DNA of 64,000 nt from a virus (taxonomy: Duplodnaviria > Caudoviricetes). The position numbers and the translations under genes were made by a program. The DNA lies in the IMG/VR virus record IMGVR_UViG_3300012020_000005, positions 17,460 through 81,459 of that record, one strand, 5' to 3'. Each line of letters starts with the position of its first letter. The first letter of the stretch is position 1. Below the pieces are notes generated by a model, which was not told the origin of the DNA, made no database searches, and saw nothing but the letters and a program-made list of their open reading frames with translations. Below, in pieces: positions 1 through 47,053 of the stretch.

Positions 1-110
1 GTTTGGGATTAAGTAAACCAAAATATTCGAGTACTCACGAATAAAAACAGGTACAAACTAATTTTTAAATTAATCACAGTTACCCAAATGTTTTGTAGTA
101 GCTGTTATAA
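1..110 (+). repeat. attC-like site S0 (left part outside window)
   Basis: TTTGGG/CCCAAA arm and GTTATAAGTAGCTTT core at 104-118, complementary to AAAGTTACTTATAAC at 582-596. Confidence 0.7.
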
Positions 111-589: not shown

Positions 590-721
590 TTATAACGTTA
601 AGGTGCTTTGCAATATGGCGGTTTCAAGGCACTGCACCTTCAATTTAGAACTAATGTTTAATCAAGGCACTAACACTGAATTTTGCACTTCACCCGCCAT
701 ATTGCAAAGCACGTGTTATAG
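590..721 (+). repeat. attC-like site S1
   Basis: TTATAAC...GTTATAG with a perfect 19-bp inverted repeat, GTGCTTTGCAATATGGCGG (603-621) / CCGCCATATTGCAAAGCAC (694-712). Confidence 0.9.
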
Positions 722-739
722 CCAGTTAATTTTAATCAA

Positions 740-952
740 ATGTCAAAATTAAATTTGTATCAAAGAAGAAAACAAGAGTGTGGTTATGTTCATGGGATGT
801 ACAAACCCGATAAAGCTGATTTTTATTTAATCAAGCAAAATGTAGATGAGTATCTAATTGCTTATTTTGATGGGGAGTTTTGGGAAAGTAAAGTAGATAG
901 GCTTATCTGTTGGAGAGAAATACCTAAATCGGATATTTTAGCTCCGTTTTAA
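740..952 (+). CDS. Hypothetical protein, cassette 2
   Basis: 70-aa ORF filling the space between S1 and S2. Confidence 0.7.
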   Translation: MSKLNLYQRRKQECGYVHGMYKPDKADFYLIKQNVDEYLIAYFDGEFWESKVDRLICWREIPKSDILAPF

Positions 953-956
953 TTGG

Positions 957-1050
957 CTATAACGTGATGCGTATATGAGAAGTGGCACTTGTAGAATGTT
1001 GAAATTTAGCACAAATGTTTATGTGCCATTTCTTATATACGCTGTTAGCA
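957..1050 (+). repeat. attC-like site S2
   Basis: CTATAAC...GTTAGCA; arms GCGTATATGAGAAGTGGCAC / GTGCCATTTCTTATATACGC (two G:T pairs). Confidence 0.9.
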
Positions 1051-1141
1051 GTAGTACGGATTTAAACCACAAATGCTCAATCAAAGAACTGAACCTTTTT
1101 CTTTTCTTTTTTGTGCGGTTGGAAAATAAAAAATTAAAAAT

Positions 1142-1963
1142 ATGATTGAGATAAATAAAAATTACAACGAAAGCAATTTAGAAACAATGGAGAAAATGCC
1201 TGATTGCTTTGTGGACTTAACGGTAACAAGCCCACCTTATGATGGATTAAGAACATATAATGGTTATTCATTCCCTTTTGAGGATATTGCAAATGAGTTA
1301 TTTAGAATTACAAAAGATGGTGGTGTATTAGTTTGGGTTGTTGGTGATGCAACTGTGAAAGGTAGTGAAAGTGGAACTAGTTTTAAACAAGCATTGTTTT
1401 TTAAAGAGGTAGGTTTTAATTTGCACGATACAATGATGTATAGAAAGATAAACTACATACCATTAACACATAATAGATATGAGCAGGAGTTTGAGTATAT
1501 GTTTATTTTTAGCAAAGGAAAGCCTAAAACCTTTAATCCAATAATGGTTGAATGTAAAACAAAAGGAAGTAAAACAAAAGGCAGAACATTTTACCAAACA
1601 AATAGCCAAAATAAACCAACAGAAGCGCACAAAAACGATGCCGTAAAAGAATACAAACAAAAAGGAAATGTATGGGAAATACCTACTAATGCAGGCACAA
1701 AAGGACACCCCGCACAATTCCCTGAGCAATTAGCTAACGACCATATTATATCATGGTCTAATGAAGGTGATTTAGTTTACGACCCATTCATGGGAAGCGG
1801 AACAACAGCAAAAATGAGTATCTTAAATAACCGTAATTGGATTGGAAGCGAAATATCTTCTGAATACTGCGATATTATTGAAGAACGAATTAAAAAAGCG
1901 TGGGAAGAAAAAAGAAAAGAAAAAGATTTAACGCAGAAAACTCTATTCGTAGATGGAATGTAG
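1142..1963 (+). CDS. DNA amino-methyltransferase (N4-C/N6-A, beta class), cassette 3
   Basis: Catalytic TSPPY near the N-terminus, HPAQFP, and SAM-binding DPFMGSGTT near the C-terminus. Confidence 0.92.
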   Translation: MIEINKNYNESNLETMEKMPDCFVDLTVTSPPYDGLRTYNGYSFPFEDIANELFRITKDGGVLVWVVGDATVKGSESGTSFKQALFFKEVGFNLHDTMMYRKINYIPLTHNRYEQEFEYMFIFSKGKPKTFNPIMVECKTKGSKTKGRTFYQTNSQNKPTEAHKNDAVKEYKQKGNVWEIPTNAGTKGHPAQFPEQLANDHIISWSNEGDLVYDPFMGSGTTAKMSILNNRNWIGSEISSEYCDIIEERIKKAWEEKRKEKDLTQKTLFVDGM

Positions 1964-1969
1964 TATTAC

Positions 1970-2102
1970 TGCTAACGGCACTTGGCTTGTGGTCAGGTGC
2001 GGAATTTGAAAAACAAAACTTAAAATATAGAACGAATGATGATAGTAGAACAAATGTTGAATAACGCACCAACCCCGCTATTGCATATAGCCGATGTTAG
2101 TG
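1970..2102 (+). repeat. attC-like site S3 (imperfect arms; loop holds the start of the next ORF)
   Basis: TGCTAAC...GTTAGTG; GGTGCG/CGCACC and GGCT/AGCC pairings. Confidence 0.8.
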
Positions 2103-2827
2103 GCAGTGCTTTGTTCAATGCTGATTGTATGGATATTTTACCTCTTATTCCTGATAAATCGGTTCAACTCATTTTGGCAGATTTGCCTTATGGAACTACT
2201 AATTTGAAATGGGATAGTGTGTTAGACCTAAACAAGTTGTGGCAAGAATACGAAAGAATAATTACTGATAATGGTGCAATAGTTTTAACAGCATCTCAGC
2301 CATTTACAACGGTTTTAATAAACTCAAATCCTGCATTATTCAAATATGAATGGATATGGTTAAAAGATAAACCAAACAACTTTGCACTTGCTAATAAAAT
2401 GCCAATGAAATATCACGAAAACGTGTTGGTTTTTTATAAAAAACTGCCAAAATACAATAAGCAAATGGAAAAACGAGATGGTGGTGGAAAAAGGTATAAA
2501 TATGCAGTAAACTATGAAAACCAACAAAGCGAACATTTAACGCTAAAAAATGGTGCAAAGTTTTTTGATATGGAATTTAAAAACCCATCAAGTGTGCAAA
2601 AATTCTCAACAGGGAGAAGGCAGGATTTAAAACACCCAACACAAAAACCGTTGGAAATGATGAAGTATTTTATTGCGACATATTCAGATGAAAACGATTA
2701 TGTTCTTGACAATACAATGGGAGTAGGAACAACTTGCGTAGGAGCAAAGGAGTTGAACCGAAAGTTTATCGGGATTGAAAAAGAGGTAAAATATTATGAC
2801 TTAGCAGTTGCTCGTGTGTTCGGGTAG
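2036..2827 (+). CDS. DNA amino-methyltransferase (beta class), cassette 4
   Basis: ADC, DLPYG, HPTQKP and DNTMGVGTT motifs; first 20 codons lie inside site S3. Confidence 0.92.
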   Translation: MMIVEQMLNNAPTPLLHIADVSGSALFNADCMDILPLIPDKSVQLILADLPYGTTNLKWDSVLDLNKLWQEYERIITDNGAIVLTASQPFTTVLINSNPALFKYEWIWLKDKPNNFALANKMPMKYHENVLVFYKKLPKYNKQMEKRDGGGKRYKYAVNYENQQSEHLTLKNGAKFFDMEFKNPSSVQKFSTGRRQDLKHPTQKPLEMMKYFIATYSDENDYVLDNTMGVGTTCVGAKELNRKFIGIEKEVKYYDLAVARVFG

Positions 2828-2833
2828 CATTGC

Positions 2834-2932
2834 CACTAACGTTTTGCGGCTTTGTGTCTGTTTGCCCCTTGCACATAGCTTCAATTTACCACAAATATTG
2901 ATGGGGCAAATAGCACAAAACCGCTGTTATAA
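2834..2932 (+). repeat. attC-like site S4
   Basis: CACTAAC...GTTATAA; arms GCGGCTTTGTGTCTGTTTGCCCC / GGGGCAAATAGCACAAAACCGC with one unpaired base. Confidence 0.9.
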
Positions 2933-3002
2933 GCTGGCTGCGGTTAATTAAACGAAAATATAAATACGAAGAACAAAACAACTTTTAATAAATTTTTAAG
3001 CG

Positions 3003-3536
3003 ATGGGAATAGATAAAATAGGAAATAAGAAAAACTCATTTACGAGTAATAGTATTGAATACAGCACACCTTTGGCGATAGTTCAGCCATTAATAAACGA
3101 ATTTGGAATAACAAAAGATGTGTGTGCAAGCCAAACAAACCATAAGTTACCTGACTATTGGAATAAAGAAGATAATGCTTTGACAAAGGATTGGATTGGT
3201 AACTGCTGGATGAACCCGCCATTTGATAGAAACTTGGCAAAGTGGGTAAGAAAAGCATCTGATGAAGCCGATAAAAATGGAGGAACAAAGGTTTGTTTGA
3301 TACCTGTTAGGAGTAATACTAAATGGTGGGCTGAACTATCAATAAAATCGGAAATTCGTTTTATCAATGGCGAAGTAAATTTCAATGATGAACCAAGAGG
3401 TTTATGGATGGGAATGTGTATAATCATATTCGGAGAAAAAGCTAAAAAAGGAACATTCAGTATTATTGATTACAGGAGCGTTGGCAAAAATTTATTAAAA
3501 GTTGAAACGGAATTGTCAAACGAAGCAGGAACGTAG
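3003..3536 (+). CDS. Phage Dam-type N6-adenine DNA methyltransferase, cassette 5
   Basis: STP...DVCA...WMNPPF...LIPVRSNTKWW...IRFING layout of short phage adenine MTases. Confidence 0.85.
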   Translation: MGIDKIGNKKNSFTSNSIEYSTPLAIVQPLINEFGITKDVCASQTNHKLPDYWNKEDNALTKDWIGNCWMNPPFDRNLAKWVRKASDEADKNGGTKVCLIPVRSNTKWWAELSIKSEIRFINGEVNFNDEPRGLWMGMCIIIFGEKAKKGTFSIIDYRSVGKNLLKVETELSNEAGT

Positions 3537-3544
3537 CAGATTGC

Positions 3545-3624
3545 TTATAATAGGCGCGCGCTTGGCGTCAGGCTTGTGAGCTTGCTCCAAGCGTGGAGTT
3601 GGGCGAAGGGCGCGCCTATTGGGC
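3545..3624 (+). repeat. Variant attC-like site S5 (AAT...ATT core, GC-rich)
   Basis: AATAGGCGCGC / GCGCGCCTATT perfect inverted repeat; C:G core pair replaced by T:A. Confidence 0.75.
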
Positions 3625-3644
3625 AAAGGTGCTGTGCGCCTTTT

Positions 3645-3777
3645 GCCCAACGGTTTGGGGCTTTACGTAGTGGGGGATTATACCCACAAAAGCCCAATAG
3701 AATTACAAAAGTATAATAAAAGCACAAAAGTATGATAGAAGAACAAAAGCCCCCATTACGTAAAACCCCTGTTAGTA
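3645..3777 (+). repeat. attC-like site S6
   Basis: GCCCAAC...GTTAGTA; arms GGGGCTTTACGTAGTGGGGG / CCCCCATTACGTAAAACCCC. Confidence 0.9.
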
Positions 3778-4397
3778 GCAGTACGGGTAATAGTGATTGG
3801 TCTGGCAACAAAAATTCAATTTATAAAACGCTTGGGGCTTCCAACCATACGGATAAGGAACGCCAAAGTGAAGATTATTACGCAACTGAACCGAAAGCAG
3901 TTGAATTGCTTTTAGATTTAGAGGACTTTTCACAACTATATGTTTGGGAATGTGCCTGTGGTCAAGGTCATTTATCGGAAGCAATGATAAAAAAAGGAAT
4001 AAAAGTAAATTCAAGTGATTTAGTTTTAAGAGGATATGATAAGGCTTATATGTATGATTTTTTAAGCGAAGAAAACAAAGAGTGGAAAGGTCATATTATT
4101 ACAAATCCACCTTATAAATTCGCAAAGGAATTTGTTTATAAAGCATTATCAATAGTTCCAAATGGTTGTAAAGTTGCAATGTTTCTAAAAGTTCAATTTT
4201 TAGAAGGTAAGGCACGAAAGAAACTATTTGAAATATATCCACCTAAAACTGTTTACGTTTCAAGCAGTCGTTTATTATGTGCCAAAAATGGCGAATTTGA
4301 ACAAATGATTGCTGGTGGTGGTTCGGCTGTTGCTTACGCTTGGTTCGTTTGGGAAAAAGGATTTAATGGTCAAACAGAATTACAATGGTTCAATTAG
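3732..4397 (+). CDS. DNA amino-methyltransferase (NPPY type), cassette 7
   Basis: DYYATEP, WECACGQGHLS and IITNPPY motifs; first 13 codons lie inside site S6. Confidence 0.85.
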   Translation: MIEEQKPPLRKTPVSSSTGNSDWSGNKNSIYKTLGASNHTDKERQSEDYYATEPKAVELLLDLEDFSQLYVWECACGQGHLSEAMIKKGIKVNSSDLVLRGYDKAYMYDFLSEENKEWKGHIITNPPYKFAKEFVYKALSIVPNGCKVAMFLKVQFLEGKARKKLFEIYPPKTVYVSSSRLLCAKNGEFEQMIAGGGSAVAYAWFVWEKGFNGQTELQWFN

Positions 4398-4416
4398 CAA
4401 CGAATGGTAGTATTGC

Positions 4417-4547
4417 TACTAACGGACGGCGATTGTCGTGGTTGGGATAAAACAAAGACTGATAATTAAATTTAAAACTAAACTGAAAAATGAAAACAAA
4501 TGTAAAAGTTAAAGACAAAACCCAATCACTACAATCGTATGTTAGTG
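4417..4547 (+). repeat. attC-like site S7
   Basis: TACTAAC...GTTAGTG; arms CGATTGTCGTGGTTGGG / CCCAATCACTACAATCG. Confidence 0.9.
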
Positions 4548-4975
4548 TTTCGGTTACGGCTTCCGAGTTGCGAATAGGGAATTTAGTACACTTTCCTTTT
4601 ACGGCAGAAAATGTAAAAGTATTAGGAATTAATGCTCGTGAATATAAATCTGAAATAATTCATACAATCTCTTTTGAAAAAGGAACGAATTTATATTGTG
4701 AAAAGCCTTCTGTATTAAAACCTATCCCATTGTCGAATGAATGGTTAGAAAAATTAGGATTTTATATTGTTTCTGATAATGAATATAAAACAAGATTTGA
4801 TATTCTAAAAGAAGGCAGAATTGATTTTATAAGAGTAAAACACGAATTGTGTGATTCTGGAGTTCGGTTTGAAGGAGCTATGTTGAAAGGAATTGATTAT
4901 GTACACCAATTGCAAAACTTCTATTTTATAATTACTGGCTCGGAATTGCAGATTGGTTCTATAACTGAACACTAA
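4490..4975 (+). CDS. Phage hypothetical protein (ELRIGN-type), cassette 8
   Basis: 161-aa ORF; starts in the S7 loop and its stop codon overlaps the next TAAC core. Confidence 0.75.
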   Translation: MKTNVKVKDKTQSLQSYVSVSVTASELRIGNLVHFPFTAENVKVLGINAREYKSEIIHTISFEKGTNLYCEKPSVLKPIPLSNEWLEKLGFYIVSDNEYKTRFDILKEGRIDFIRVKHELCDSGVRFEGAMLKGIDYVHQLQNFYFIITGSELQIGSITEH

Positions 4976-5024
4976 CGTTTTGCAGCTATGCGCTCGTTTT
5001 AATGGCGCATAGGTGCTGTTATGC
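4970..5024 (+). repeat. attC-like site S8 (shortest, 55 bp)
   Basis: CACTAAC...GTTATGC; arms GCAGCTATGCGC / GCGCATAGGTGC. Confidence 0.9.
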
Positions 5025-5085
5025 GCTGGCACGGTTGATTAAACGATAAACTTAAATTGAAACACAAAACAAAATTTTTATTAAA

Positions 5086-5304
5086 ATGAGCGAGGGTAAA
5101 AAAGCAAAAGAACTAATTGATAAGCACCGTAAATGGGTTAATCAAATTGATGGCAGTTACTCCGAAACAGAGTATGCTAAAAAAGCTGCGCTTATTACCG
5201 TTAATGAAATTCTTGAAGTAGAAAGCAAGAAAATGATAAACGGTGATGTGAATGAATATGATTATTGGGAACAAGTAAAAAAGAAAATAAATGGCAGTAT
5301 TTGA
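5086..5304 (+). CDS. Hypothetical protein, cassette 9
   Basis: 72-aa ORF overlapping the next gene. Confidence 0.7.
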   Translation: MSEGKKAKELIDKHRKWVNQIDGSYSETEYAKKAALITVNEILEVESKKMINGDVNEYDYWEQVKKKINGSI

Positions 5305-5812
5305 TAAAGAAAAATTGTTTGATGCAGAGAAGGTAAACAAAAGCCTTGAAAGCATTGTGTGGGGAACACCAACAGAGTTGTTTGCCCCGATTGATAAAGA
5401 GTTCAGATTTACACTTGACGTATGTGCAATATCAGAAAACGCAAAGTGTGAAAGGTTTTTTACACCACAAGATGACGGACTTGCCCAAAGTTGGGAGAAT
5501 GAAGTTTGCTGGTGTAATCCACCATACGGGAAAGATGTAGTAAAGTGGTGTAAAAAAGCATTACAGGAAAGTAAAAGAGGGGCAACAACGGTATTGCTGA
5601 TACCTTGCAAAACGAACACAAATTGGTGGCACGACTTTGTAATACCTTATGCTGAAATTCGTTTTTTGCGTGGCAGAGTGGCTTTTGTTTACCCTAACGG
5701 AGAGCAGAGCAAACAAGCATTACCGTGGCCGCTTGCTTTTGTCATTTATCGTGGGTCGGAAGATTTTAATAAAAATTTTGAACCGCAAACTCTTTTTGGA
5801 AACGAAATGTAG
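5291..5812 (+). CDS. Phage Dam-type N6-adenine DNA methyltransferase, cassette 9
   Basis: WGTP...FTLDVCA...DDGL...WCNPPY...TNTNWW...IRFLRGR. Confidence 0.88.
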   Translation: MAVFDKEKLFDAEKVNKSLESIVWGTPTELFAPIDKEFRFTLDVCAISENAKCERFFTPQDDGLAQSWENEVCWCNPPYGKDVVKWCKKALQESKRGATTVLLIPCKTNTNWWHDFVIPYAEIRFLRGRVAFVYPNGEQSKQALPWPLAFVIYRGSEDFNKNFEPQTLFGNEM

Positions 5813-5819
5813 TGCTTGC

Positions 5820-5950
5820 GTATAACGGCTACGGCTATGTGCAGTAGCGGATTTGAAACACAAAACTTAAAATTATGATACGAAGATTATTTGAAAAACT
5901 AAGGCTGATTAAACCACGTCAGCCGCACTTGCCACAAACCAATGTTAGTG
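5820..5950 (+). repeat. attC-like site S9 (imperfect arms; related to S3)
   Basis: GTATAAC...GTTAGTG; loop shares GCGGA(A)TTTGAAA(A/C)ACAAAACTTAAAA with S3. Confidence 0.8.
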
Positions 5951-6129
5951 GCAGTTTTAAAGAGTGGTATTTAGAATTTCGCAACGAAATGGCAAAATCT
6001 TTTGGTGTTAATTATAGCATTTCTATTGCAAGTTGGACTTTTAGTGAAAATCATAAACACTATTACGATAGGGGACTTACACCAAAAGAGGCAGTATTGG
6101 AATATGCAGCGTCAAAAAATTGCCACTAA
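5875..6129 (+). CDS. Hypothetical protein, cassette 10
   Basis: 84-aa ORF starting in the S9 loop; stop overlaps the TAAC core. Confidence 0.65.
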   Translation: MIRRLFEKLRLIKPRQPHLPQTNVSGSFKEWYLEFRNEMAKSFGVNYSISIASWTFSENHKHYYDRGLTPKEAVLEYAASKNCH

Positions 6130-6260
6130 CGGTTAGTATATGGAAAGTAGGCGATAGGAAGGTATGAACCAATGGAAGCCTAAACGACACACTAAAACAA
6201 GGACAAGAGCCTTGAAATGTTACCAAGTGTTTAGCCTATTTTTTATATACATTGTTATGT
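6124..6260 (+). repeat. attC-like site S10
   Basis: CACTAAC...GTTATGT; arms GTATATGGAAAGTAGGC / GCCTATTTTTTATATAC (three G:T pairs). Confidence 0.88.
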
Positions 6261-6365
6261 ACTGTATAGTGACTTTTAAGCAATAAACTTTAATTAAAGA
6301 ACGAAACTAAGTAATAATATTTTGTGCGGTGGCAAATTGCTGAGGCACGAAGCAAAACAAAGACA

Positions 6366-7340
6366 ATGATTAAACTATACAAAGGCGATTGCCTTATTGA
6401 AAGCGATAAAATAGAAAGTGGTAGTGTTGATTTGATATTAACTGATTTGCCATTTGGTACTTTAAAAGGTGCTACATTGACAAGTTCAAAAACAAGAAAC
6501 AATGAGTATTCTTGGGATAATATTATTGATACGAATAAAATTTATAAGATAGCAAACAGAATACTTAGGAAAAACGGTAAAATGTTATTGTTTTGTCAAG
6601 AGCCATTTACAACTGAATTGATAAACAAAGCAATACCAAATATACCTTTAAGTTATAGAGCAATATGGGAAAAGAATGATTTTGCAAATTGTTTGTTTGC
6701 AAAAAAAGCAATGGTAAATTTTTACGAAGATATTCTAGTTTTTAGCAAAAATGAAGATACAGAAAAAGCACACCCTTTGAGAGAGTATTTTTATACTGAA
6801 TACGAAAAAACAGGTTTGACCTATAAAGAAATAAACAGAGATTATTTAGAAACCACTTTTGAAGGTGGCGGTGGAATGGCTTACAATATGCTTTGTAGAA
6901 CACGTTTGTATTTTAGTATGCCAACAGAAGAGGCTTATAGTAGATTGCAGAAAACTGGATATTTTAAAAAGCCTTATGAAGAGCTTAAAATAGAAGACGA
7001 AGCGTTTAAAAACAAAATGAAAAGCACATTTAACCTTTGGGAAGGTAAAAAATACAAAAGTAATATACTTAAATACAAAAAAGATTATGATGGCTACCAC
7101 CCAACGCAAAAGCCAGTTTTATTGTTAGAGGACTTAATAAAAACTTTTAGCAACGAAAATGATTTAGTAGTTGATTTAACTATGGGTTCTGGTAGCACTA
7201 TGGTAGCCTGCAAAAACACCAATAGAAACGGAATAGGTATTGAAATGAATGACGAGTATTTTAGTATTGCTGAGAAAAGGGTGGAAAAAAATATTATTAC
7301 GACTGGTGAGCAAACAAGTATATTAGACGAACTGAACTAA
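6366..7340 (+). CDS. DNA amino-methyltransferase (beta class) with internal insertion, cassette 11
   Basis: GDC, DLPFG, HPTQKP and DLTMGSGST motifs; likely start ATG 6366 (MIKLYKGDCL), although the ORF track begins at 6324. Confidence 0.9.
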   Translation: MIKLYKGDCLIESDKIESGSVDLILTDLPFGTLKGATLTSSKTRNNEYSWDNIIDTNKIYKIANRILRKNGKMLLFCQEPFTTELINKAIPNIPLSYRAIWEKNDFANCLFAKKAMVNFYEDILVFSKNEDTEKAHPLREYFYTEYEKTGLTYKEINRDYLETTFEGGGGMAYNMLCRTRLYFSMPTEEAYSRLQKTGYFKKPYEELKIEDEAFKNKMKSTFNLWEGKKYKSNILKYKKDYDGYHPTQKPVLLLEDLIKTFSNENDLVVDLTMGSGSTMVACKNTNRNGIGIEMNDEYFSIAEKRVEKNIITTGEQTSILDELN

Positions 7341-7341
7341 G

Positions 7342-7357
7342 CTATATTGTACATAAC
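7342..7357 (+). repeat. Terminal half-site of the cassette array (no hairpin follows)
   Basis: CTATATTGTACATAAC, complementary to GTTATGTACTGTATAG at 6254-6269. Confidence 0.75.
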
Positions 7358-7680: not shown

Positions 7681-7860
7681 ATGATATATTGTAAAGAATG
7701 TAGACGTAAGGCAGTTATGGATGCTTTTAGTAATGGTATTTGTGGAGTGTGTAGTGAAGATATTTCTTGTAGCCATAGTCCTTGTAATTTAGTTTGTTAC
7801 AATTGCGCGGAGGATTTTAATTTATGTGAATCATGTGGTAAAAGTTTAAAAGATGAATAG
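7681..7860 (+). CDS. Small Cys-rich (zinc-finger-like) protein, not in ORF track
   Basis: MIYCKEC...CGVC...CYNC...CESC; 59 aa translated by hand. Confidence 0.65.
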   Translation: MIYCKECRRKAVMDAFSNGICGVCSEDISCSHSPCNLVCYNCAEDFNLCESCGKSLKDE

Positions 7861-16093: not shown

Positions 16094-16824
16094 AAAATAT
16101 ATTCAAAGACCGTACAGGTGAAATACACATTACTAACGAAGGTTACGAAGTTGAGATTATTGAGTATTATGGTAATAATAGTTGTACTATAAAATTTAAA
16201 AATGGAGTGGTTATTAAAGATAAATCGTATCATAGTGTAAGAAAAGGAAGAATTAAAAACCCATACCATCCTTCTGTCTATGGTGTTGGTTATTTTGGTC
16301 AAGGGAAATATAAAGCAGTAATTGCCTATAAAAGTACTAAATATTATATAACTTGGATAGATATGATAAAAAGATGTTATTCAGAAAAAAGTCAACAAAA
16401 TAACCCAACATATAAAGATTGTACAGTAGATGAAAGATGGCACAACTTTCAAGTCTTTGCTGAATGGTTTGAAAACAATTTCAATCCTGAATATATGGAC
16501 AGATGGTGTTTAGACAAAGATATTCTACAAAAAGGTAATAAAGTTTATTCTCCTGAAACTTGTGTTTTTATACCACATATAATTAATAATGTGATTAAAG
16601 AGGGGGGTAATAAAGGAGTTTATAAATCAACAAGGAGTTCTTACAAGTGTCAATTAACAATAAAAGGCAAAACACGTTTTTTAGGGTCTTATAAAAATAA
16701 AAAAGAAGCTTATGAAGTGTATAAAGAAGCTAAGAAAAAGTATATTAAACAAATTGCTGATGAATGGAGGGATAAAATAGGTAAGAATATTTATGAAGTA
16801 CTTTATAAATGGGAAATAAAATAA
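16090..16824 (+). CDS. HNH-type homing endonuclease-like protein
   Basis: KDRTGE N-terminus, W.DM..RCY, WHNFQVFAEW, LDKDIL...YSPETCVF, AP2-like C-terminal region; paralogue of 55160-55903. Confidence 0.7.
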   Translation: MKNIFKDRTGEIHITNEGYEVEIIEYYGNNSCTIKFKNGVVIKDKSYHSVRKGRIKNPYHPSVYGVGYFGQGKYKAVIAYKSTKYYITWIDMIKRCYSEKSQQNNPTYKDCTVDERWHNFQVFAEWFENNFNPEYMDRWCLDKDILQKGNKVYSPETCVFIPHIINNVIKEGGNKGVYKSTRSSYKCQLTIKGKTRFLGSYKNKKEAYEVYKEAKKKYIKQIADEWRDKIGKNIYEVLYKWEIK

Positions 16825-16871
16825 ATTACTATGACATACAAAAAATTTAAACACAATTTCTTTCTCATATT

Positions 16872-17186
16872 TTATTGTGGAATTTCCATCCATTGAATTA
16901 TGTGCCAACCATTACCTTCATCTACAACACCTCCACCATCTTCATATAACCAAATTCCATTTTCAAAATAACCTAAAGTGGTGCATGTTATATTTTCTTT
17001 AGGTCTCCTATAATCAAATGTTTTTATAATGACAGACCTTTCGTCTTCAGGAGTTTGTTCATTTACATTTATCCATTTAGGAGCTCCTGCTTCAAATCCC
17101 GCTATAAAACATTGTTCTACAAGACCATCTTCAGACCTATCTATTAAATCTGAATATTCTTTTGCTAACCTCTCTTTACTTTTCAT
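16872..17186 (-). CDS. Hypothetical protein with DUF551-like C-terminus
   Basis: WINVNEQTPE...WMEIP pattern. Confidence 0.55.
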   Translation of the reverse strand: MKSKERLAKEYSDLIDRSEDGLVEQCFIAGFEAGAPKWINVNEQTPEDERSVIIKTFDYRRPKENITCTTLGYFENGIWLYEDGGGVVDEGNGWHIIQWMEIPQ

Positions 17187-18968
17187 TTATCTCTATTTTA
17201 GGTTCTTTATCTTCTAAATGTGTTATTGTGTAACTTTCTCCTACTTTAATTTTATTTAAGATGTATACACCTGTTTCTATGTTTTTTATTTCAGGTTGTA
17301 TTTTGTCTGTTATTGTTTTATAATCTTCTTTCCCAGCCCACCAAAAACGAATAAATTGACGGGAAGACTCAAAATGACACCAATCATTACCATTGAATAA
17401 TTCATTTTCTGTCTCTTGTAATTTTCCTAATCCATCCCAATCTACTAAGGTTTTGTAATATCCTTTTCTTAGGGGTTTTGATATGCTGTTATTTATCCAC
17501 ATTTTCTATAAATTTTATGTTACTTGGTAAAACACTTTCTATTGTTCCATCAGATAATTCTACTAAAGCTACTGTAAAGTTTCCCGCTCCTGTTTCAAAT
17601 TCTTCATAAGAGCAACCCCATATATGAAATAACCCTTCATGTATAAAATCTTTTTCCCAACAATTAGTTCCCTCTTTTACTCTTTTGAAAGCTCCCTCAC
17701 TAATATATTCTGCTATAATCCATTTTTTAAATAATACTTTTCTCATTTCTTTTTACTTTTATACCTAAATTTTGCTTTACATTCTTCATTAATACACTGT
17801 ACTACTTTTGAGCCTTTTCTTGTTTGTTTTAAGTTTGATTGGCATTTTGAGCAGTTATCTGTTTTTAGCCTTTCTTGTATCTGTTTATCTATGTTTTCAT
17901 TCTTTTTTCGGCGAACTTCAGCTTTATATTGCTTTTCTTCCTCTGTTGGTGGTATAAGAATTTTAGCTAATCTCTTATACTCTTTACTTATCCAAGGGTC
18001 TTCATAATGATTACCTAAAGATATTTCATCTCCTAATTTTATAAATAAATCCCATTCACGTTGATTGTCTCTCATAACCATTCTAAATTTATAGGTTCAT
18101 AAAATTTATTATCTCTATCAACTTCTTTTTCAAAACTTTTCTTTCCATACCAATAAGCATAAACTTTTTTCTGTTCTTTTTCTAGTTTTTTATACGCGGA
18201 ATTTGCTTCTTTTTGAGTTTTAAAAATTAATGTTTCTTCTCCTCCATACCAACAGATTCCAATAGGATTGAAACCAGCTTCTCTTACTGTTCGTAATGTT
18301 ATGGAGGTTGAAGTTCCATATTTATATCCATTATCTTCTAACCACTCATTATAAGCTATATTTTCTTGTAACTCCTTATTCCATTTTTCTTTTTGTTCAG
18401 GAGTTATTCTATCTAATATTTCCTGTATTATTTTACTCTTCATTAGTGTAAATATTTTATTATAATATCTGAGTTATCTATTAGATTTGAATTATATAAA
18501 TCATAGGCAGATACACCTACATTGTCTTTGCAGTTCATGTACCATAAATCATTTTCTAAATAGAAATCACATTCTTTGTATCTATCATAAGCTATTAGAT
18601 TTTTCTTGGCTTTATTTGATTGTTTTTTGGTGTGTTTCATCTCTTAAAATATAATCTGTTGGTTTTAAATCTAATACTCTTGCTAATGTTTGAAAACTGT
18701 CAGAGGCTGAATCGTAATTATGTTCTTCTAATTCGTAATCTAAATACCCTCCAAATTCATCTTTTTCTACTATTTCTGCGGAAAACTTTTCCGCATAAGG
18801 TGAATTAATACACTCATCTGCGATTCCCAAAAGATTGTAATTATTATGTGGTAGTTTTATTCTTTTACCTTCGTCCTGGTCAAAACCTTTTATATATCCA
18901 TCTGAGCAATCTCCTATTACATAGTCTATGTCGTTTTCTACAAATATATAATTATTATGTTTTTTCAT
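17176..18968 (-). other. Cluster of small phage hypothetical genes (17176-17502, 17489-17746, 17743-18081, 18072-18443, 18443-18640, 18612-18968)
   Basis: Overlapping - strand ORFs converging on the + strand block. Confidence 0.65.
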
Positions 18969-39499: not shown

Positions 39500-42187
39500 T
39501 TACTTACTTGTTAAGATAGCATCTAATCTTGTTCTTTTGTAATCTCCTATAGCTTGTAATACTTCTACATATAGCTTTCCTTCGTCTAATTCTTTAGATA
39601 CTGAATGCATAAGCCACTGGTCTTTGTTCCCATCAGGGAATGTTATCTCAATCTTTCCACTTAAACTTCCATTACTTACTGTAAAAATAGGTTTGTATGT
39701 TGCATTTAATACGCTATCAATCATTGGTTGTTTTTCAGGAGTGTACTGTGGTAAACTTTGTGCATATTCTTGTCTATCTTCGTCTGATTGTAATGGTGTT
39801 CCTACAAGTGTGTGATTATTATGTAATTGTACTCGCATTTCAGGTGGGATTATATCAGGTCTATTTTCAGCTATGGTCATAAACTTTTGATATGCTATCT
39901 CTTTATTTGTCGCATTAAAAGTGTAATCAGGTAAAATTAAGTTAGGATTTTTATAGCTGTTGTTCCATTTATCTTCTGCCAAATCTAATTTTTCTGATAA
40001 TTGGTCAGATAAATTAGATAATTTAAAAGTTCTTAATTTTGATTTTTCATCTCCTACTTTTACTGAGGCGGTTACTTCAAATTCCTCTCCTTTTTTAACT
40101 ATTGTATAATTATTTTTATCTAATATTTGTATGTTTTCTCCTTCAGGTAAACTTGCTTCTATAGCTTGTTTTATGGTTATGGCATCTTCTGCTTGTCCTT
40201 TTATTTCTGTTGAAAAAGACATGGCTTTATTTGAAACAAGATTCTTACTTAATTCTGCTGCTTTTGTAGATGCATTTGTATAAATTGTATCCATTCCATC
40301 TTTAAAACTTTTTGCAAAATCTATTTTTGCGTCTCCCCACCGCGATTCTATTTCTGTTACGTCTGTGTCTTGTTTAAACGGGCTAAAACTTGCAGGTTTT
40401 CTAGTTGTTGAGTAAGAAACTGCGGATACTCCACCTAAACTTCCCCCACCAAATGTAACAGGAACTGTTCTATTTGCACCTTTTATCCTGTTTTTTACAA
40501 AATTTAAACTTTTTCTAACTCTATCTGATTCACTTTCAGTCAAACTTCCCTCTAAAGAATTTAAACTAGATTCTAATAATTTTACTTGTTCTTCTGTTAA
40601 ATTTGCTCCTCCACTATGTTCTTTATAGTTATTACCCATTTCATATACTACAAGGTCTTGAGTAGCTTTGTCTAAATCCTCAAACTTTTTATTACCTTTA
40701 AGTACATTTACTGTAAAAGGTAATTCTGTTTTTAAATTTTCTAATTTTGCCCCTGTAATAGAATTATACTGCTTTGCTATAATATCTCTAATACCTTCTT
40801 TTGATTTTGTTACAATAGCGTTGTACCCTTTTTGTGATGTTTGAAAGGCTCTTAAAGCGTTTTGTTTTTCTATGGAATATGTTGGTAAAGAGGGGTCATC
40901 TGCTTTTAAATTTATTTTATATGCCCATTGCTCTTGCGGAGTTTTTGAGTTGTACCCATTTTCATTTGTCTTTTTTAATATCGCATCTAAGGTTTTATTT
41001 GAATCTCTTACTTGTGCTTTTATTGTATAAATGTCGGGCTTTTTTAAAAACTCATCTGTTTGTGGTTTATCTATGGTTGTAGGTAATGCTAAATTTTGTT
41101 CTTCTTCTTTCTTTTTAGCTTTTTCATCTTGTTCTACATTAAATTTATACATGTCCCATTTAAGGTCGTCATTTTTAATATCTGTAATCCTATTTACTTG
41201 ATAATTTGAAGCTATACTTGATAGAAGTTTATTACTGTAATTAGAGTAAATATCATAAGACTTTTCATCTAATTGTTTTCTGTAGTTTTTTTCATCATCT
41301 GTAATATTCAACAACTTAGTCTGTAATTCTTTTTTCTTTTGAATATTTCCTTCCGAACTTATTTGTGCCTCTAATGTTGCCCTTTGAACTTTTGAATCTT
41401 GATATTTTTTTGACACTTCGGGATATAGTTCTGCTTCTAACGAATTTCTATCCATCTTGCCATAAGTTTGTCTAGCGTTTATTTTTATTTGTGCTATATC
41501 AGCGGGGTCTAAACTATTTAAAAGATTTTGATGAATATCTTGCGCTGTTACTTTTTCTCCGTATACATTTGTAGTGCGATATTGCCCATCTGTGGTTTGT
41601 AACAGTTGTTGTTTATCCATCAACTCAACATACTTTTTAGCTACTTCGTTAAGTTTTCCACTTACATCTCTATATGGTGTATATTGTAGTTGTCCTAATG
41701 AAGCTTGTCCTGTTGTGTCATTAGCCCACTGAGAGTATCCTGCTTGTTCTAAAGCATCAATATCATTTTGTTGAGCATAAGTAGTCTTCCCTGATTTTAA
41801 ATCACTATCTTTAAGATTTTCATTCCCTTTTTTATAATTTTGCAGTCTAATGCCCTCTGAATATTCTTTTTGAAAAGTTTTGTCGTTAACTAGGGATTTA
41901 ATTACAGTATCTAGTTTTTGTTTAACACCTGATTTTGATAAATCATGGTCTCCTTGTGAATTATTAATTATAGAAACTAAACTATCAAGTTTTGTTGCTG
42001 TATATTCTTTACCATACTCACGCATTACATTTGCATCTATAGCAAATTTATCTAAAGAGTCTTGTATTTCTTTTTGATTGGCATCATATTTTTGCTGTTT
42101 TAACGTAGCAACTTTACCTAATAAATCCACCGCTGATGAATCTATTGGTTGTCCGTAATTGATGTCTTTAGTTAAATAGTTTGACAT
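39500..42187 (-). CDS. Internal virion / ejection protein, 895 aa
   Basis: Helical N-terminus and position between cargo-like genes, as in crAss-like virion modules. Confidence 0.6.
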   Translation of the reverse strand: MSNYLTKDINYGQPIDSSAVDLLGKVATLKQQKYDANQKEIQDSLDKFAIDANVMREYGKEYTATKLDSLVSIINNSQGDHDLSKSGVKQKLDTVIKSLVNDKTFQKEYSEGIRLQNYKKGNENLKDSDLKSGKTTYAQQNDIDALEQAGYSQWANDTTGQASLGQLQYTPYRDVSGKLNEVAKKYVELMDKQQLLQTTDGQYRTTNVYGEKVTAQDIHQNLLNSLDPADIAQIKINARQTYGKMDRNSLEAELYPEVSKKYQDSKVQRATLEAQISSEGNIQKKKELQTKLLNITDDEKNYRKQLDEKSYDIYSNYSNKLLSSIASNYQVNRITDIKNDDLKWDMYKFNVEQDEKAKKKEEEQNLALPTTIDKPQTDEFLKKPDIYTIKAQVRDSNKTLDAILKKTNENGYNSKTPQEQWAYKINLKADDPSLPTYSIEKQNALRAFQTSQKGYNAIVTKSKEGIRDIIAKQYNSITGAKLENLKTELPFTVNVLKGNKKFEDLDKATQDLVVYEMGNNYKEHSGGANLTEEQVKLLESSLNSLEGSLTESESDRVRKSLNFVKNRIKGANRTVPVTFGGGSLGGVSAVSYSTTRKPASFSPFKQDTDVTEIESRWGDAKIDFAKSFKDGMDTIYTNASTKAAELSKNLVSNKAMSFSTEIKGQAEDAITIKQAIEASLPEGENIQILDKNNYTIVKKGEEFEVTASVKVGDEKSKLRTFKLSNLSDQLSEKLDLAEDKWNNSYKNPNLILPDYTFNATNKEIAYQKFMTIAENRPDIIPPEMRVQLHNNHTLVGTPLQSDEDRQEYAQSLPQYTPEKQPMIDSVLNATYKPIFTVSNGSLSGKIEITFPDGNKDQWLMHSVSKELDEGKLYVEVLQAIGDYKRTRLDAILTSK

Positions 42188-42244
42188 TGTTTAATTTTTG
42201 GTAAAAATAGTTATTTATATGGAATTATTAAAATTACTTAATTT

Positions 42245-45151
42245 CTAGGTAACTTTCTTTAATTTACCCATTTCAATTAAAGTTTTTATATATTTTGCTT
42301 TATCTTTTTCAGGCATATTATTTATTTTATCCGCCTCTGTCATACCCATATTATTTGTAAACTTATAGCCACTGTCTTCAAACATTATATCTCCATTAAC
42401 TACTTTTTGATTTTCATTTAAAGCGTTATATGCTTTCATTTTATTGAAGTTAAGAGTATTTAAAGCATTTTCCATATTATGATAATTATAATAATTTTGA
42501 AGATTTCTTTCAAATGCATTTTGTCCTGCAAAAACTTTTCCTTGATAATCAGTTATGTTTTTTGCTTGCATCATTCTATTTTTTGCTTCTGTATTTGCGT
42601 TGAATTGGTCTACTGCAAATTGATTATCTGCATTTTTTTGTGTTACATCTCCTACAATTTGATTAATGCTTTGTTGTCCACTAGCTAAAAGTTGTGCTTG
42701 CATTGCTGCTTTTTGTTCATCAGGTAAATATCCTAATTGATTCAAGGCAGCCATTCTATTTCTAGCTTCTTCGACTAATATAGGAGATTGTGCTTTTGGC
42801 TCTAAATAAGGAAATCTAACATCTTCTTTGTAAACTGATTGTGGAGCAGAAGGCGGAATAATTATAGAATTTGAAAAGTCAGGAAATACAACTTTATTTC
42901 TTGTTATTGTTTCTGATTGTGGTGTGACATCTTCTACTTTATCTTCAGGTTGTGTTACTTTTATAGCTTCTAATACGGCATTGTGAAATATTCCAGGTTT
43001 TGTGTCTTTTGCTAATTCTTTTATTCTCTCATATCTTGCTTTTCCTGTTAAACCTTTTAATTGACTTTTTACGTTTTCAGCATATTGCCCACTATAATTA
43101 GTTAAATATTCATCTATTTTCTTAGCTTTCTCCTCGGTATCCATAGATTTGTCTACTAAGGGTTTCCAAAGATTTTTATAGTTATCTCCTTTCCAAATAT
43201 CTTTATTTACTTTAAGCACTGATTTGTAAGGTAGCCATGTTGCATCACTTGGAGTATTTGTATAGTCTGTTTCAGGGTTAGTGTCTACTGTTGTTCCTTG
43301 TTGTGCTTTCATGGTTGCTAATTCCATAGCTCTTTCAGGGGATATTCCATATTTATTGGCTAATTCTACAATCTTACCCCCCTCTTGTGCTGTATTATAT
43401 TCTGTACTAGTTTTTGGTATTTTTTCTTGTTCTTTAAACAACATATCAAAAATAGCTTTTCTTGTTTCTAAAAGAGGTTCTTTTTTAGCTTCTATATCTA
43501 TTAATTGTTTTGAGATGAATTCTTTATTTAGATTTTGAGTTGTTTCATCTACATCTTCTTTATCTAATACTTTTTCAGCTTTTTTGGCAATATCTGCTTG
43601 TTCTTCATTTAAACTTTTAATTCCTAGTTTAGATGTAGCTTTATCTAACACTGTTGCAAATGTATCTTTAGCAGAAACTTTAAATCCAAATTTTTCTGAA
43701 AACATTTTAGCATTTTCTACCCCTACTTTTGTATGGTCTGAAAGTATCTCTGTTCCATTGGGTAGATTTACAGGTGTTCCTCCATCTTCATGTGGTTTTC
43801 CTAAAGCTTCTTGAATTTCTCCTGTTTCTCCGTCTTTTGTTATCTCTCCTTTTTCTATCTCTACATTACTATTTTCTCTGTCTGTTGGTAATTTATATTC
43901 CCCTGTTATTAAATCAGCTACCGTTTTACCTCCCTCTTCCATTTGTGCAATACCATTGTTAGAAGTAATACCTTTATTCCTATTCATATACTGAATATAA
44001 TTTGGCATACGTTTAAATTCATTTTCTATTTCGGCTTGTGGTTTTATATAATCTACTGTTCCGTCTTTATAATAAACTTTTGTGTATAATTGATTATCAG
44101 GTAAATTGCCCTCTCTCATTCCATTAGTTGAAACATTATATTTTATATCAGCAATAGGTTTTTGTATATTATCATACCCATTAACCATATCTCCGCCTTG
44201 TTGTTTTTTAGATTGCTCATACATTGAAAAAGCAATAGCTATATTTTGCTTATGACTTCTCCCTGAATTTTCATGTTCTAATTTTCGTATTTTTTTAGAA
44301 ATCCAATCATCTTTACCCCCTTGTTGAGCCAATTCATAATCGTTTTGATAGCCGTAGATTTTATCTTTTGCTTCTTTAGTTACCCTCTTTTCTTCTTTTC
44401 CCAACCCGTACCCCGATAAAGTGTTTCTTAAAAGACCTAATCCTCCTCCCACAAGTCCTAAAATACCATTTTGAGTATTTCCTTTTCCTAATTGATATGC
44501 TCCATAATTTAGCATATCTATTTGACTATTTGGGTTAAAATACGTCAATTTATCTACATAGTTTTTTTCAGATGTGTCAATAGGATTTCCATTTTCATCA
44601 TAGTTGTTTGTCATAGTATTTTGAATCCTATTCTCCGCCATTCTTTTTTTCATTTCATCACTAGGAATATAAGTTTCTTGACTCATATCATTTGGGTCTA
44701 AACCTATTCCTTGTTGTGGTTTAGCTTGATAAGTATTGTAAGTATTTAAAGATTGTTGGGTTGGATAATTTAAATCATTTTGAGGATTATTACCATACCA
44801 AGTACCTGCTTGTTGCATCATCTCTTGCTGTGGAGATTGCATTTGTTGAATGACTCCTTGTACAATTTGTGTGGCTTGATTAGGGTCTAATCCCATACTA
44901 ACTAATTGTTGTAATACTTGTTGAGGGTCTGCTCCTGACTGTAACGCTTGCGCCACTTGTTGAGCTATTTGATTCATATCCATTTCTCCTCTTTCTTCCT
45001 GTGGATTAGAGTTTGCACCTTCAACTTGCTCTTCTTGTTGAGATTGAATTCCACCTTGTTGAGATTTTTCCATATTCATCATTCTGCACATCATTTCAGC
45101 CTGTGATTTAGAATATCCTTGAGCTACTAATTTTTTTATGTGGTCTTTCAT
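42245..45151 (-). CDS. Virion cargo-like protein, 968 aa
   Basis: Repeated QQGG/EGG motifs, Q-rich N-terminus, NVEIEKGE...GKPHEDGG segment. Confidence 0.6.
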   Translation of the reverse strand: MKDHIKKLVAQGYSKSQAEMMCRMMNMEKSQQGGIQSQQEEQVEGANSNPQEERGEMDMNQIAQQVAQALQSGADPQQVLQQLVSMGLDPNQATQIVQGVIQQMQSPQQEMMQQAGTWYGNNPQNDLNYPTQQSLNTYNTYQAKPQQGIGLDPNDMSQETYIPSDEMKKRMAENRIQNTMTNNYDENGNPIDTSEKNYVDKLTYFNPNSQIDMLNYGAYQLGKGNTQNGILGLVGGGLGLLRNTLSGYGLGKEEKRVTKEAKDKIYGYQNDYELAQQGGKDDWISKKIRKLEHENSGRSHKQNIAIAFSMYEQSKKQQGGDMVNGYDNIQKPIADIKYNVSTNGMREGNLPDNQLYTKVYYKDGTVDYIKPQAEIENEFKRMPNYIQYMNRNKGITSNNGIAQMEEGGKTVADLITGEYKLPTDRENSNVEIEKGEITKDGETGEIQEALGKPHEDGGTPVNLPNGTEILSDHTKVGVENAKMFSEKFGFKVSAKDTFATVLDKATSKLGIKSLNEEQADIAKKAEKVLDKEDVDETTQNLNKEFISKQLIDIEAKKEPLLETRKAIFDMLFKEQEKIPKTSTEYNTAQEGGKIVELANKYGISPERAMELATMKAQQGTTVDTNPETDYTNTPSDATWLPYKSVLKVNKDIWKGDNYKNLWKPLVDKSMDTEEKAKKIDEYLTNYSGQYAENVKSQLKGLTGKARYERIKELAKDTKPGIFHNAVLEAIKVTQPEDKVEDVTPQSETITRNKVVFPDFSNSIIIPPSAPQSVYKEDVRFPYLEPKAQSPILVEEARNRMAALNQLGYLPDEQKAAMQAQLLASGQQSINQIVGDVTQKNADNQFAVDQFNANTEAKNRMMQAKNITDYQGKVFAGQNAFERNLQNYYNYHNMENALNTLNFNKMKAYNALNENQKVVNGDIMFEDSGYKFTNNMGMTEADKINNMPEKDKAKYIKTLIEMGKLKKVT

Positions 45152-46188
45152 TTTATTTTAGTTATTTCTTTTAAAAACTGTTTTTCTTTTTCTGTTAGAG
45201 GTGTCTCTATCACCTTACTTGCCTCTTTAAATATGTGATTTGTTTCGGGCATCATCAATCGTCTCTCCCCTGTTTCAGGAGCGTAACCGTATAGAGGTTC
45301 TCTAACTCCTTGCATAGTTATATTATTGGAATTTATTTGCACAGGTTTACCCCAATTCTCCGAGTTCCAATATCCCATATTATCAATCTTTATGCCTTGT
45401 TGAGCCAAAATTGGAGACTCCACGAAATTACTTATATCATTATAATCATAACTTTGTGATTGTATTTGTGAACTTTGCTCTTCTTCTATAGGTTTATATA
45501 ACTCTGCTATTTTTTGTTCTTGTTCTGAAAATAATTCTGTTAGAAAATCTTCTTCTTTTTGTTTTTCTTGTAATACTTTTAATGCCTGAGTTGCTTCTGT
45601 TTCTTTTTCAGATTTTTCTTCTTCAAATGTTATTCCTTCAGCACTATTAGAAAAATCAATGTTTTGCATTGGGTTTATGTAAGGAGCAACACTATTTGCA
45701 TAAGTAGGTGAATCTTCCATCTTTTTATTTGCCCAATCGTAGACTTGCTTTGTTGTTTTAATAGAGCCGTCTTTATTATAAAATATGCTTTTATTTGCCT
45801 GTAAAGCTTTAGGAGATATATAGTAGTCTACTGGCATATTTTCATCCTTTTTATAAGCTTTAAATAAGTTTCCTGCTCCTTTTATACCTAAAAAATGACC
45901 TAAATATCTTTCTGAATCTGTTAAATCTCTTCCTACTATTGGTTTTAATTGTTTTTCATTATCCTGTGTAAAAAGCCTCATTACTTTTTCTGCTTTTTCA
46001 GGATTAAATCTATCATTTAAAGTATATCCTAAATTATATTTATTTACCACCTCTTTCCAAGTACTGTCTGTAAACTGCCAAAGTCCTGATGCTGAACTAG
46101 TTTTAGCCTTTGCATAAGGATTTCCGCTAGATTCAGCACTACTTGTTTTTTGTAAATAATTATAATATGGGTCGTTTACATCTGCCAT
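45148..46188 (-). CDS. Virion-associated lytic transglycosylase / lysozyme-like protein
   Basis: AESSGNP.AK..TSSASGLWQFTDSTW...DRFNP...YLGHFLG. Confidence 0.8.
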   Translation of the reverse strand: MADVNDPYYNYLQKTSSAESSGNPYAKAKTSSASGLWQFTDSTWKEVVNKYNLGYTLNDRFNPEKAEKVMRLFTQDNEKQLKPIVGRDLTDSERYLGHFLGIKGAGNLFKAYKKDENMPVDYYISPKALQANKSIFYNKDGSIKTTKQVYDWANKKMEDSPTYANSVAPYINPMQNIDFSNSAEGITFEEEKSEKETEATQALKVLQEKQKEEDFLTELFSEQEQKIAELYKPIEEEQSSQIQSQSYDYNDISNFVESPILAQQGIKIDNMGYWNSENWGKPVQINSNNITMQGVREPLYGYAPETGERRLMMPETNHIFKEASKVIETPLTEKEKQFLKEITKIK

Positions 46189-46189
46189 C

Positions 46190-47041: not shown

Positions 47042-47053
47042 AATTATAATTTA

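Follow-up and report, generated by a model that had tools for sequence, protein, structure and literature searches.

Which gene does a recombination hairpin belong to, the one before it or the one behind it? Integrons are the textbook means of gene capture, and their cassettes have a fixed polarity in which the gene comes first and the site follows. The question is raised anew by a row of small genes and imperfect hairpins in IMGVR_UViG_3300012020_000005, an 81.5-kb virus record of IMG/VR, of which positions 17460-81459 (64,000 nucleotides, nt; hereafter the window, numbered from its first letter) were analysed. A first-pass annotation of these letters had proposed that here the hairpin travels with the downstream gene. 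Our results indicate that this is probably so: each hairpin would belong to the gene behind it, exchange would take place at the left TAAC of the site, and the genes would be inverted relative to the sites of an integron-type array. The stretch is likely to be the larger part of a cassette array of about 8 kb, of integron type, in the early/replication region of a Flavobacteriia phage; this region of the record resembles Flavobacterium, Cellulophaga and Polaribacter phages.

Small genes alternate with imperfect hairpins on the + strand from window -684 to 7357. An asymmetric site scan (left TAAC[G/T], right [T/C]GTTA, arm duplex of -17 kcal/mol or lower) recovers 12 + strand sites, which all lie within window -684..6257 (Table 1), and none in the other ~73 kb of the 81.5-kb record; its two matches on the - strand are the array's own near-perfect palindromes. 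Two more cores lie beyond these sites, one degenerate (TTATAAT) and one bare (ACATAAC). The hairpins span 49-131 nt and are bounded by cores of the form xxxTAAC and GTTAxxx, in some cases CAAC and GTTG, in agreement with the inverted 7-nt cores (RYYYAAC ... GTTRRRY) that enclose an imperfect palindrome of about 57-141 bp in an integron attC. The array first noticed at 1976-7357 is therefore real, but it also extends further left, to at least record position 16775, ~2.6 kb beyond the coordinates initially given.

Natural rearrangements and the probable point of exchange

Homology breakpoints were mapped over 51 loci with 333 sites, and duplicates of the same context were removed. Fifty junctions fall at the left TAAC core and 14 at the right one. 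At 30 of the left-core junctions upstream homology ends; at the other 20 homology begins and extends across the hairpin into the gene. Breakpoint offsets bunch at -4/-5 and +1..+3 around the end of TAAC. The clearest cases come from cultured relatives. The Flavobacterium phages mumin6-2 and mumin6-3 (Muminvirus) differ by an insertion or deletion (indel) of 506 base pairs (bp) that consists of one hairpin plus its downstream gene, and the junction lies inside a TAACGTT shared by two left cores. In four phages the array terminus ..ATAAC directly abuts the same flank, TACAATATTACATGA. The exact boundary between ..TTATAAC and TACAATATT is occupied by an additional hairpin-plus-gene unit in filifjonk and by a different one in snork. 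These extra units, set between TAAC and TACAAT, have the form G-hairpin-GTTA..gene..TAAC, and snork also holds a hairpin-plus-four-gene block inserted at a left core. In these relatives, new units appear to be added at the bare TAAC at the 3' end of the array, beside a conserved flank.

Three sites of the window itself (960, 1973 and 6127) have left-core breaks in relatives, with one right-core break in addition at site 960. Homology at site 960 begins 4-5 nt before the left cut in two related loci (L104 and L063) and continues into the gene. The hairpin of site 1973 and its downstream gene are common to L116 and L064, and upstream homology stops at left cut +1 in L028, as it does at site 6127 in L052.

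The reading frames point the same way. At 96 of 263 sites the hairpin contains the ATG with which the first long open reading frame (ORF) begins, with GTT read as a codon in 59 of these 96, so only an exchange at the left core keeps such genes intact. Junction counts, in-hairpin starts and the handedness of the sites (see below) are three independent lines of evidence for the crossover at the left core that the first-pass annotation had favoured. Two of the observations on which that proposal drew are also borne out: sites 1973 and 5823 have a ~30-nt loop core and an identical ATGTTAGTGGCAGT in common and differ in their left cores (ACTGCTAAC versus GCGTATAAC), and the array ends at a bare ACATAAC with no hairpin beyond it. 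A third, the GC-rich block, is compatible with the model as a gene-less hairpin unit of 64% GC, but it is weak and does not discriminate.

Architecture of the sites and the strand that folds

For the site grammar, 269 unique related phage sites were pooled and folded with DNA parameters. Each site reads 5'-TAAC-G...T-GTTA-3' on the coding strand, the hairpin running from the G right after ..TAAC to the T before GTTA... The pooled consensus has a left core aTtgc...TAAC, a hairpin that starts with Gttt...gg.tt. and ends in T, and a right core GTTA...g..gt. On the 5' arm TAACG is followed at once by an asymmetric bulge of 3-4 nt, which faces a single T, and a C.A mismatch is conserved in the GGCTTTG/CAAAACC part of the arms. 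In a classical attC the folded bottom strand has extrahelical T and G bases along its 3' arm, and the unpaired spacer at its centre is roughly symmetric; neither feature is present in these sites.

Complementarity joins the two ends of a cassette across its gene. The 8 private nt beyond GTTA match the complement of the 8 nt before the next TAAC at 7 of 8 positions in the modal case and never at all 8; within one site, the private 8 nt match the site's own left core at a mean of 2.5/8, near chance. This grammar recurs in 99 bacterial sites. The reason that 8/8 never occurs is position 11, an invariant T.G on the folding strand in phage and bacterial arrays alike, which may be a recognition mark. 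In two near-identical phages (L001 and L002, position 3276 in both) four bases differ inside one right core (GTTATAGGCTGT versus GTTAACCGCTGT), a change that breaks the end-to-end complementarity of that cassette in mumin6-2 and that may be the footprint of an exchange within the core.

The + strand is the more stable at 7 of 8 window sites and at 222 of the 269 pooled phage sites (mean -2.0 kcal/mol), as the first reading of the mismatches had anticipated. Among bacterial sites the TAACG strand is the more stable in 93 cases and the less stable in 5 (n=98). Whole-site minimum free energy z-scores were weak where loops are large, and arm duplexes were scored instead; a symmetric scanner returned many false positives and the asymmetric one was specific. 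Scans of IMG/VR and of genomes with 14-mers gave numerous chance matches, which were filtered out. A search of Rfam found no attC model and only chance miRNA-like hairpin matches. On the antisense strand of 263 phage hairpins the Bacteroidota -7 box TAnnTTTG is enriched (37 occurrences against a shuffle maximum of 25).

Gene orientation in phages, chromosomes and a class 1 integron

Handedness was calibrated on a known site. Both strands of attCaadA7 are given in the supplement of Qi et al. 2023 (PMC9892861), and the strand TCTAAC-A...C-GTTAGAT was located in the class 1 integron CP082444.1, where it proves to be the coding strand, with aadA7 directly upstream of the attC and qacEdelta1 downstream; intI1 is encoded at the far end, on the other strand. 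As the coding strand thus reads TAAC-A...C-GTTA, the classical bottom strand reads TAAC-G...T-GTTA, the same as the coding strand of this phage.

Genes in phage arrays are sense to the TAACG strand in 190 segments versus 9, and in 180 versus 3 at recombinase-linked viral loci. Flavobacteriaceae chromosomal arrays have the opposite arrangement, with genes antisense to that strand in 65 segments and sense in 6 (20 loci). The arrays of Flavobacterium difficile (L211) and F. fontis (L216), whose near-identical hairpins were found by the 14-mer scan of bacterial genomes, have their ORFs opposite the TAACG strand in 3/3 and 7/7 segments. All units of the window carry ORFs on the bottom-strand equivalent, and none has the classical attC 3' of its ORF. 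Set against the antisense counts of chromosomes, the sense counts of phages make the polarity reversal a systematic phage trait and not a peculiarity of the window. With the TAACG strand taken as +, class 1 integrons, chromosomal arrays and phage arrays all have the recombinase at the right end; the strand of the cargo alone differs.

A XerA-like recombinase linked to related arrays

Three IMG/VR contigs encode a recombinase of 267-289 amino acids (aa) right behind the last cassette, and the family is found in 340 viral stretches. Where at least 3 kb of upstream sequence is available, 42 of 50 viral loci have at least two same-strand sites upstream of the recombinase, and sites downstream of it occur in only 1 of 69 viral loci. 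The last site ends 170-1400 bp before the viral recombinase gene. A conserved junction, ..ATAAC followed by TACTATATGTA, lies 60-70 nt before the start codon, and various last cassettes abut it. Bare ends analogous to that of the window are seen in Muminvirus (TAAC, then TACAATATT) and before the recombinase gene (TAAC, then TACTATATGTA); among the fetched loci there is no relative of the window's right flank, in which a bare ACATAAC meets TATTTAC. What is new here is that, in uncultured phages, a bare-core end is followed by a XerA-like tyrosine recombinase without the IntI-specific insert.

The family extends to bacterial chromosomes. In F. difficile a 371-aa tyrosine recombinase (L211, 4569-5684) adjoins the last cassette, and the viral recombinases are 38-41% identical to this array-linked enzyme. 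Of 301 Flavobacteriaceae genomes, 194 encode a homologue by the family profile (E <= 1e-60), and arrays lie alongside at 18 of 20 inspected chromosomal recombinase loci, with the core pattern and the T.G as in phages. The best NCBIfam match of the recombinases is NF040815 (XerA/integron integrase), under its cut-off. They match TIGR02249 (integron integrase) in two stretches at 145-189 bits, for a cut-off of 265, and align end to end with Pyrococcus XerA (4a8e), and residues 180-247 of VchIntIA face only 25 aa. Given this two-piece match and the short segment opposite VchIntIA, the array-linked recombinases are not IntI as defined by its insert.

Other loci add to this picture. Arrays stand beside XerA-like recombinases of 355-400 aa in F. 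difficile (L211, 1011-5684; NZ_JAAJBT010000008, 40001-48000) and in L394-L413. One viral array of 18 sites (L281) has a second, divergent tyrosine recombinase of 384 aa (17071-18225, - strand) placed tail to tail with the array-linked enzyme (16271-17074), and possibly the integrase of the phage itself. The cultured Cellulophaga phage Ingeline, which encodes a distant recombinase homologue, has no clear array.

Competing explanations

Several observations weigh against a hairpin that is moved with its downstream gene by a dedicated recombinase. Besides the right-core junctions, there are 38 similarities limited to the hairpin, and one hairpin (Y) keeps its upstream methyltransferase in mumin and snork with differing downstream genes; the linkage of hairpin and downstream gene, which the left-core junctions support, is hence not absolute. 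Strict single-linkage clustering of the flanks, the check suggested at the outset and a less informative one than breakpoint mapping, gives a modest linkage signal (33 extra upstream versus 25 extra downstream partners; 7 clusters versus 1). No PF00589 match, and hence no tyrosine recombinase, is present in this record, and 16 of 20 array-bearing phage records have no tyrosine recombinase either. The array-linked recombinases are without the IntI-specific stretch of ~43 aa thought to read extrahelical bases. On the sense strand of the 263 phage hairpins the -7 box TAnnTTTG is at chance level (19 versus 17 expected), and the idea that each hairpin carries a promoter is thus unsupported, as this host-type motif is not enriched. 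Finally, P12002L_attC1, a site of Polaribacter phage P12002L, was the one site for which no IntI1 recombinant was verified (Qi et al. 2023, PMC9892861).

If polarity were classical, exchange would occur at the right core (between G and TTA on the + strand), the hairpin would belong to the upstream gene and the left-core junctions would be secondary. The 14 de-duplicated right-core junctions and hairpin Y behind the same methyltransferase fit this explanation, as does the methyltransferase at 1142-1963, whose homology to mymlan begins exactly at the right core while the upstream hairpins differ. We consider it very unlikely, as the left core has 50 junctions to the 14 of the right, the junctions of the 506-bp indel and of the terminal insertions coincide with TAAC to the base, the array terminus is a bare TAAC and not a bare GTTA, the site handedness equals that of classical bottom strands, and in 96 of 263 cases the gene starts within the hairpin and would be cut apart by an exchange at the right core. 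The right-core minority could reflect occasional use of the other, nearly as stable strand, or homologous exchange between conserved hairpin families. A different objection is that this phage has no dedicated site-specific system at all. The hairpins would then be mainly RNA or regulatory elements (terminator, processing or translation signals), and relaxed homologous recombination, or a switch of the replication template at the base of a hairpin, would shuffle the cassettes, as has been proposed for the PeSL elements of T4-type phages (see below). Such a role would suit the lack of an encoded recombinase in this and most array-bearing isolates, the coincidence of the better-folding strand with the mRNA strand (its G.T mismatches would be G.U in RNA), the hairpin families conserved by themselves, and some breakpoints inside hairpins or 45 nt past the right core. 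Yet bacterial arrays favour the same strand (93 versus 5) although it is antisense to their genes; what is constrained is thus the site, not the mRNA. The recombinase is also tightly and directionally linked to arrays, at 42/50 viral and 18/20 chromosomal loci, the TAAC(GTT) to which the junctions are confined is shared over 4-7 nt, a length insufficient for recombination of the annealing type, and a private end-to-end complementarity with an invariant T.G has no RNA role. We therefore regard this combination of RNA elements and homologous recombination as unlikely, though it keeps some probability for this phage, which lacks a recombinase. It is extremely unlikely that the genes, each framed by a terminal inverted repeat of 12 nt (GTTA+8 ... 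8+TAAC), are small elements of transposon type with the hairpins as mere spacers or targets. Private inverted repeats do flank every gene, and ten junctions part gene from hairpin at the right core, but no transposase is present, most units move with their hairpin, the array-linked enzyme is a tyrosine recombinase, and complementary ends are required if a circular integron cassette is to restore a full site.

Proposed mechanism

Under the preferred reading, in which the hairpin goes with the downstream gene, the mobile unit would consist of a G, an imperfect hairpin, T-GTTA plus 8 private nt, one or more genes, and 8 private nt plus TAAC. Because such a unit begins at the hairpin's G, the hairpin would belong to the downstream gene, often supplying its start and first codons. 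The + (coding) strand would fold as single-stranded DNA, as the equivalent of the recombinogenic bottom strand of a classical attC, and the recombinase would cut within the 5' core, between TAA and C. Exchange of one site with the next would free a circle in which the private ends pair, with the invariant T.G at position 11, to complete a site, and circles would insert at the bare core that ends the array. The support for exchange at the AAC core of the folding strand, between units with complementary ends, comes from natural variants. This phage encodes no recombinase and would thus need the host or a co-infecting phage to provide one in trans.

We lean slightly towards a broader interpretation, in which Bacteroidota and their phages hold a second integron lineage with a XerA-like recombinase, devoid of the IntI insert, acting on folded attC-like sites. 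Phages would have flipped the cargo, so that the site serves as 5' leader, start codon and N-terminus, and each self-contained cassette would be added at the 3' end of an early operon.

Layout of the array

The features of the array are collected in Table 1. Its cargo comprises three N6/N4 methyltransferases, two Dam-type methyltransferases and several unknown ORFs. Most of the cargo is orphan DNA methyltransferases, which plausibly shield phage DNA from host restriction. The gene-less unit has its hairpin at 3552-3617 (folding z = -6.3), with right core ATTGGGCAAAGG and left core CCTTTTGCCCAAC. At 3552-3651 its GC content is 64%, versus 35% for the array, and it has a private inverted repeat with mutated cores, TTATAAT for ..TAAC and ATTGGG for GTT.... 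Most likely this is a cassette that came from a foreign source and is now a fossil or immobilised.

Table 1. Hairpin sites, cores and cargo of the array (window positions unless stated otherwise).
Feature	Position	Scan site (left/right)	Strand	Remarks
Two hairpin sites left of the window	record 16775-16861 and 17126-17255	-684/-598 and -333/-204	+	
Hairpin site	1..107	-21/107	+	left core ..CATCTAAC at -28..-18, right core GTTATAAGTAGC at 104-115
Hairpin site, near-perfect palindrome	593..718	593/718	+	TTATAAC, then G ... T, then GTTATAGCCAGT
Hairpin site	960..1047	960/1047	+	heads cassette of N6/N4 methyltransferase 1142-1963
Hairpin site (S3 of the first-pass annotation)	1973..2099	1973/2099	+	loop holds start codon of N6/N4 methyltransferase 2036-2827; right core GTTAGTGGCAGT translated as VSGS
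Hairpin site, wholly intergenic	2837..2929	2837/2929	+	heads Dam-type methyltransferase 3003-3536
Degenerate left core and gene-less GC-rich unit	3537..3651		+	left core TTATAAT at 3545-3551
Hairpin site	3648..3774	3648/3774	+	contains start codon of ORF 3732-4397
Hairpin site	4420..4544	4420/4544	+	contains start codon of ORF 4490-4975
Short hairpin site	4973..5021	4973/5021	+	heads ORF 5086-5304 and Dam-type methyltransferase 5291-5812
Hairpin site (S9 of the first-pass annotation)	5823..5947	5823/5947	+	contains start codon of ORF 5875-6129
Hairpin site	6127..6257	6127/6257	+	heads N6/N4 methyltransferase 6366-7340
Bare terminal core	7351..7357		+	ACATAAC, then TATTTAC; putative attI-like array end, no recombinase gene after

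The neighbours of the array in this record and in Muminvirus include a PolB-exo-like exonuclease, a PD-(D/E)XK nuclease, DnaB and PolA, and no recombinase or nuclease candidate for the exchange was found among them. Just past the array end, at window 7681-7860, lies a 59-aa cysteine-rich ORF with several CxxC pairs and weak RING-finger-like matches only.

Implications

The array uses the logic of integron sites with the opposite polarity, and it does so in viruses. If the reading given here is true, integron polarity would be a design choice and not a constraint, a recombination site could belong to a coding sequence, and recombining hairpins may take no more than a plain Xer-type enzyme. Marine and freshwater phages would then trade anti-restriction methyltransferases as cassettes. 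The model can be tested on the arrays of cultured Muminvirus, Lillamyvirus and Polaribacter phages and on the recombinase family in their hosts. It would also explain why integron-finding tools give fragmentary output in such phages, reported as clusters of attC sites lacking an integron integrase (CALINs) 'with divergent directions'.

Comparison with known systems

Our literature search found no report of reversed cargo polarity, hairpin-embedded starts, an attI-like end or a phage-encoded recombinase for such arrays. Small accessory genes of T4-type phages are reportedly shuffled as PeSL (promoter-early stem-loop) cassettes, an account credited to Arbiol et al. in 2010 in which the shuffling is ascribed to homologous recombination between long repeats. 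Both systems move small phage genes as units bounded by stem-loops. They differ in that exchange here is confined to a core of 4-7 nt, at attC-like sites, with a linked tyrosine recombinase. CTX phage is said (Val et al., 2005) to integrate by means of XerCD, which would mean that a Xer enzyme without the IntI insert can recombine a folded single-stranded hairpin; that system has a single integration site for the whole phage genome and no cassette array.

Cassette-like sites in virulent phages have been described as CALINs, including those of P12002L with two methyltransferases (Qi et al. 2023, Front Microbiol, PMC9892861). The two P12002L sites 'with divergent directions' were treated there as ordinary attC and tested with IntI1. 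In our analysis P12002L_attC1 is one of at least nine sites of the kind described here that P12002L carries on its gene-sense strand, between methyltransferase genes; the paper is silent on reversed polarity, array extent, the attI-like end and a dedicated recombinase. These sites (L280, 31117-40949, - strand), of which one was published, also lie beside a Mom-like modification gene and several methyltransferases.

The rAID-1 loci of Bacteroidales (Ross et al. 2019; bioRxiv 10.1101/471110) consist of a XerD-like recombinase followed by co-directional arrays of small genes with integron-like intergenic repeats. In arrangement, 13 of 20 Flavobacteriaceae chromosomal loci match this layout. Chromosomal loci have two layouts, with either the 5' end or the 3' end of the recombinase gene facing the array, and the second looks like rAID-1. 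Membership is defined by a 5' XerD-like recombinase at least 44% identical to BF9343_RS08045 and at least two co-directional low-GC genes. This record has no recombinase, and related phages have theirs at the 3' end of the array, whereas rAID-1 is bacterial, carries immunity genes and combines a 5' recombinase with classical polarity.

The closest comparison is with classical integrons (IntI, attI and attC; class 1 and sedentary chromosomal). Phage arrays differ from them in having genes on the bottom-strand equivalent, with the site 5' of the gene and often holding its start codon, and in a XerA-like recombinase that lacks the IntI-specific ~43 aa and lies downstream of the cassettes and co-directional with them. 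Further differences are the 12-nt private complementarity with its invariant T.G, the 3-4 nt bulge after TAACG and the phage carrier. The likenesses are nonetheless extensive: mostly single-gene units separated by imperfect hairpins, cores of the RYYYAAC / GTTRRRY type, one favoured strand with exchange in its AAC core, complementary cassette ends with which a circle can complete a site, a bare core next to the recombinase gene (in relatives), and the class 1 geometry of site strand and recombinase. The system is best filed as integron-like in its working, yet set apart from integrons proper by two of their defining features, the IntI insert and gene-then-attC polarity.

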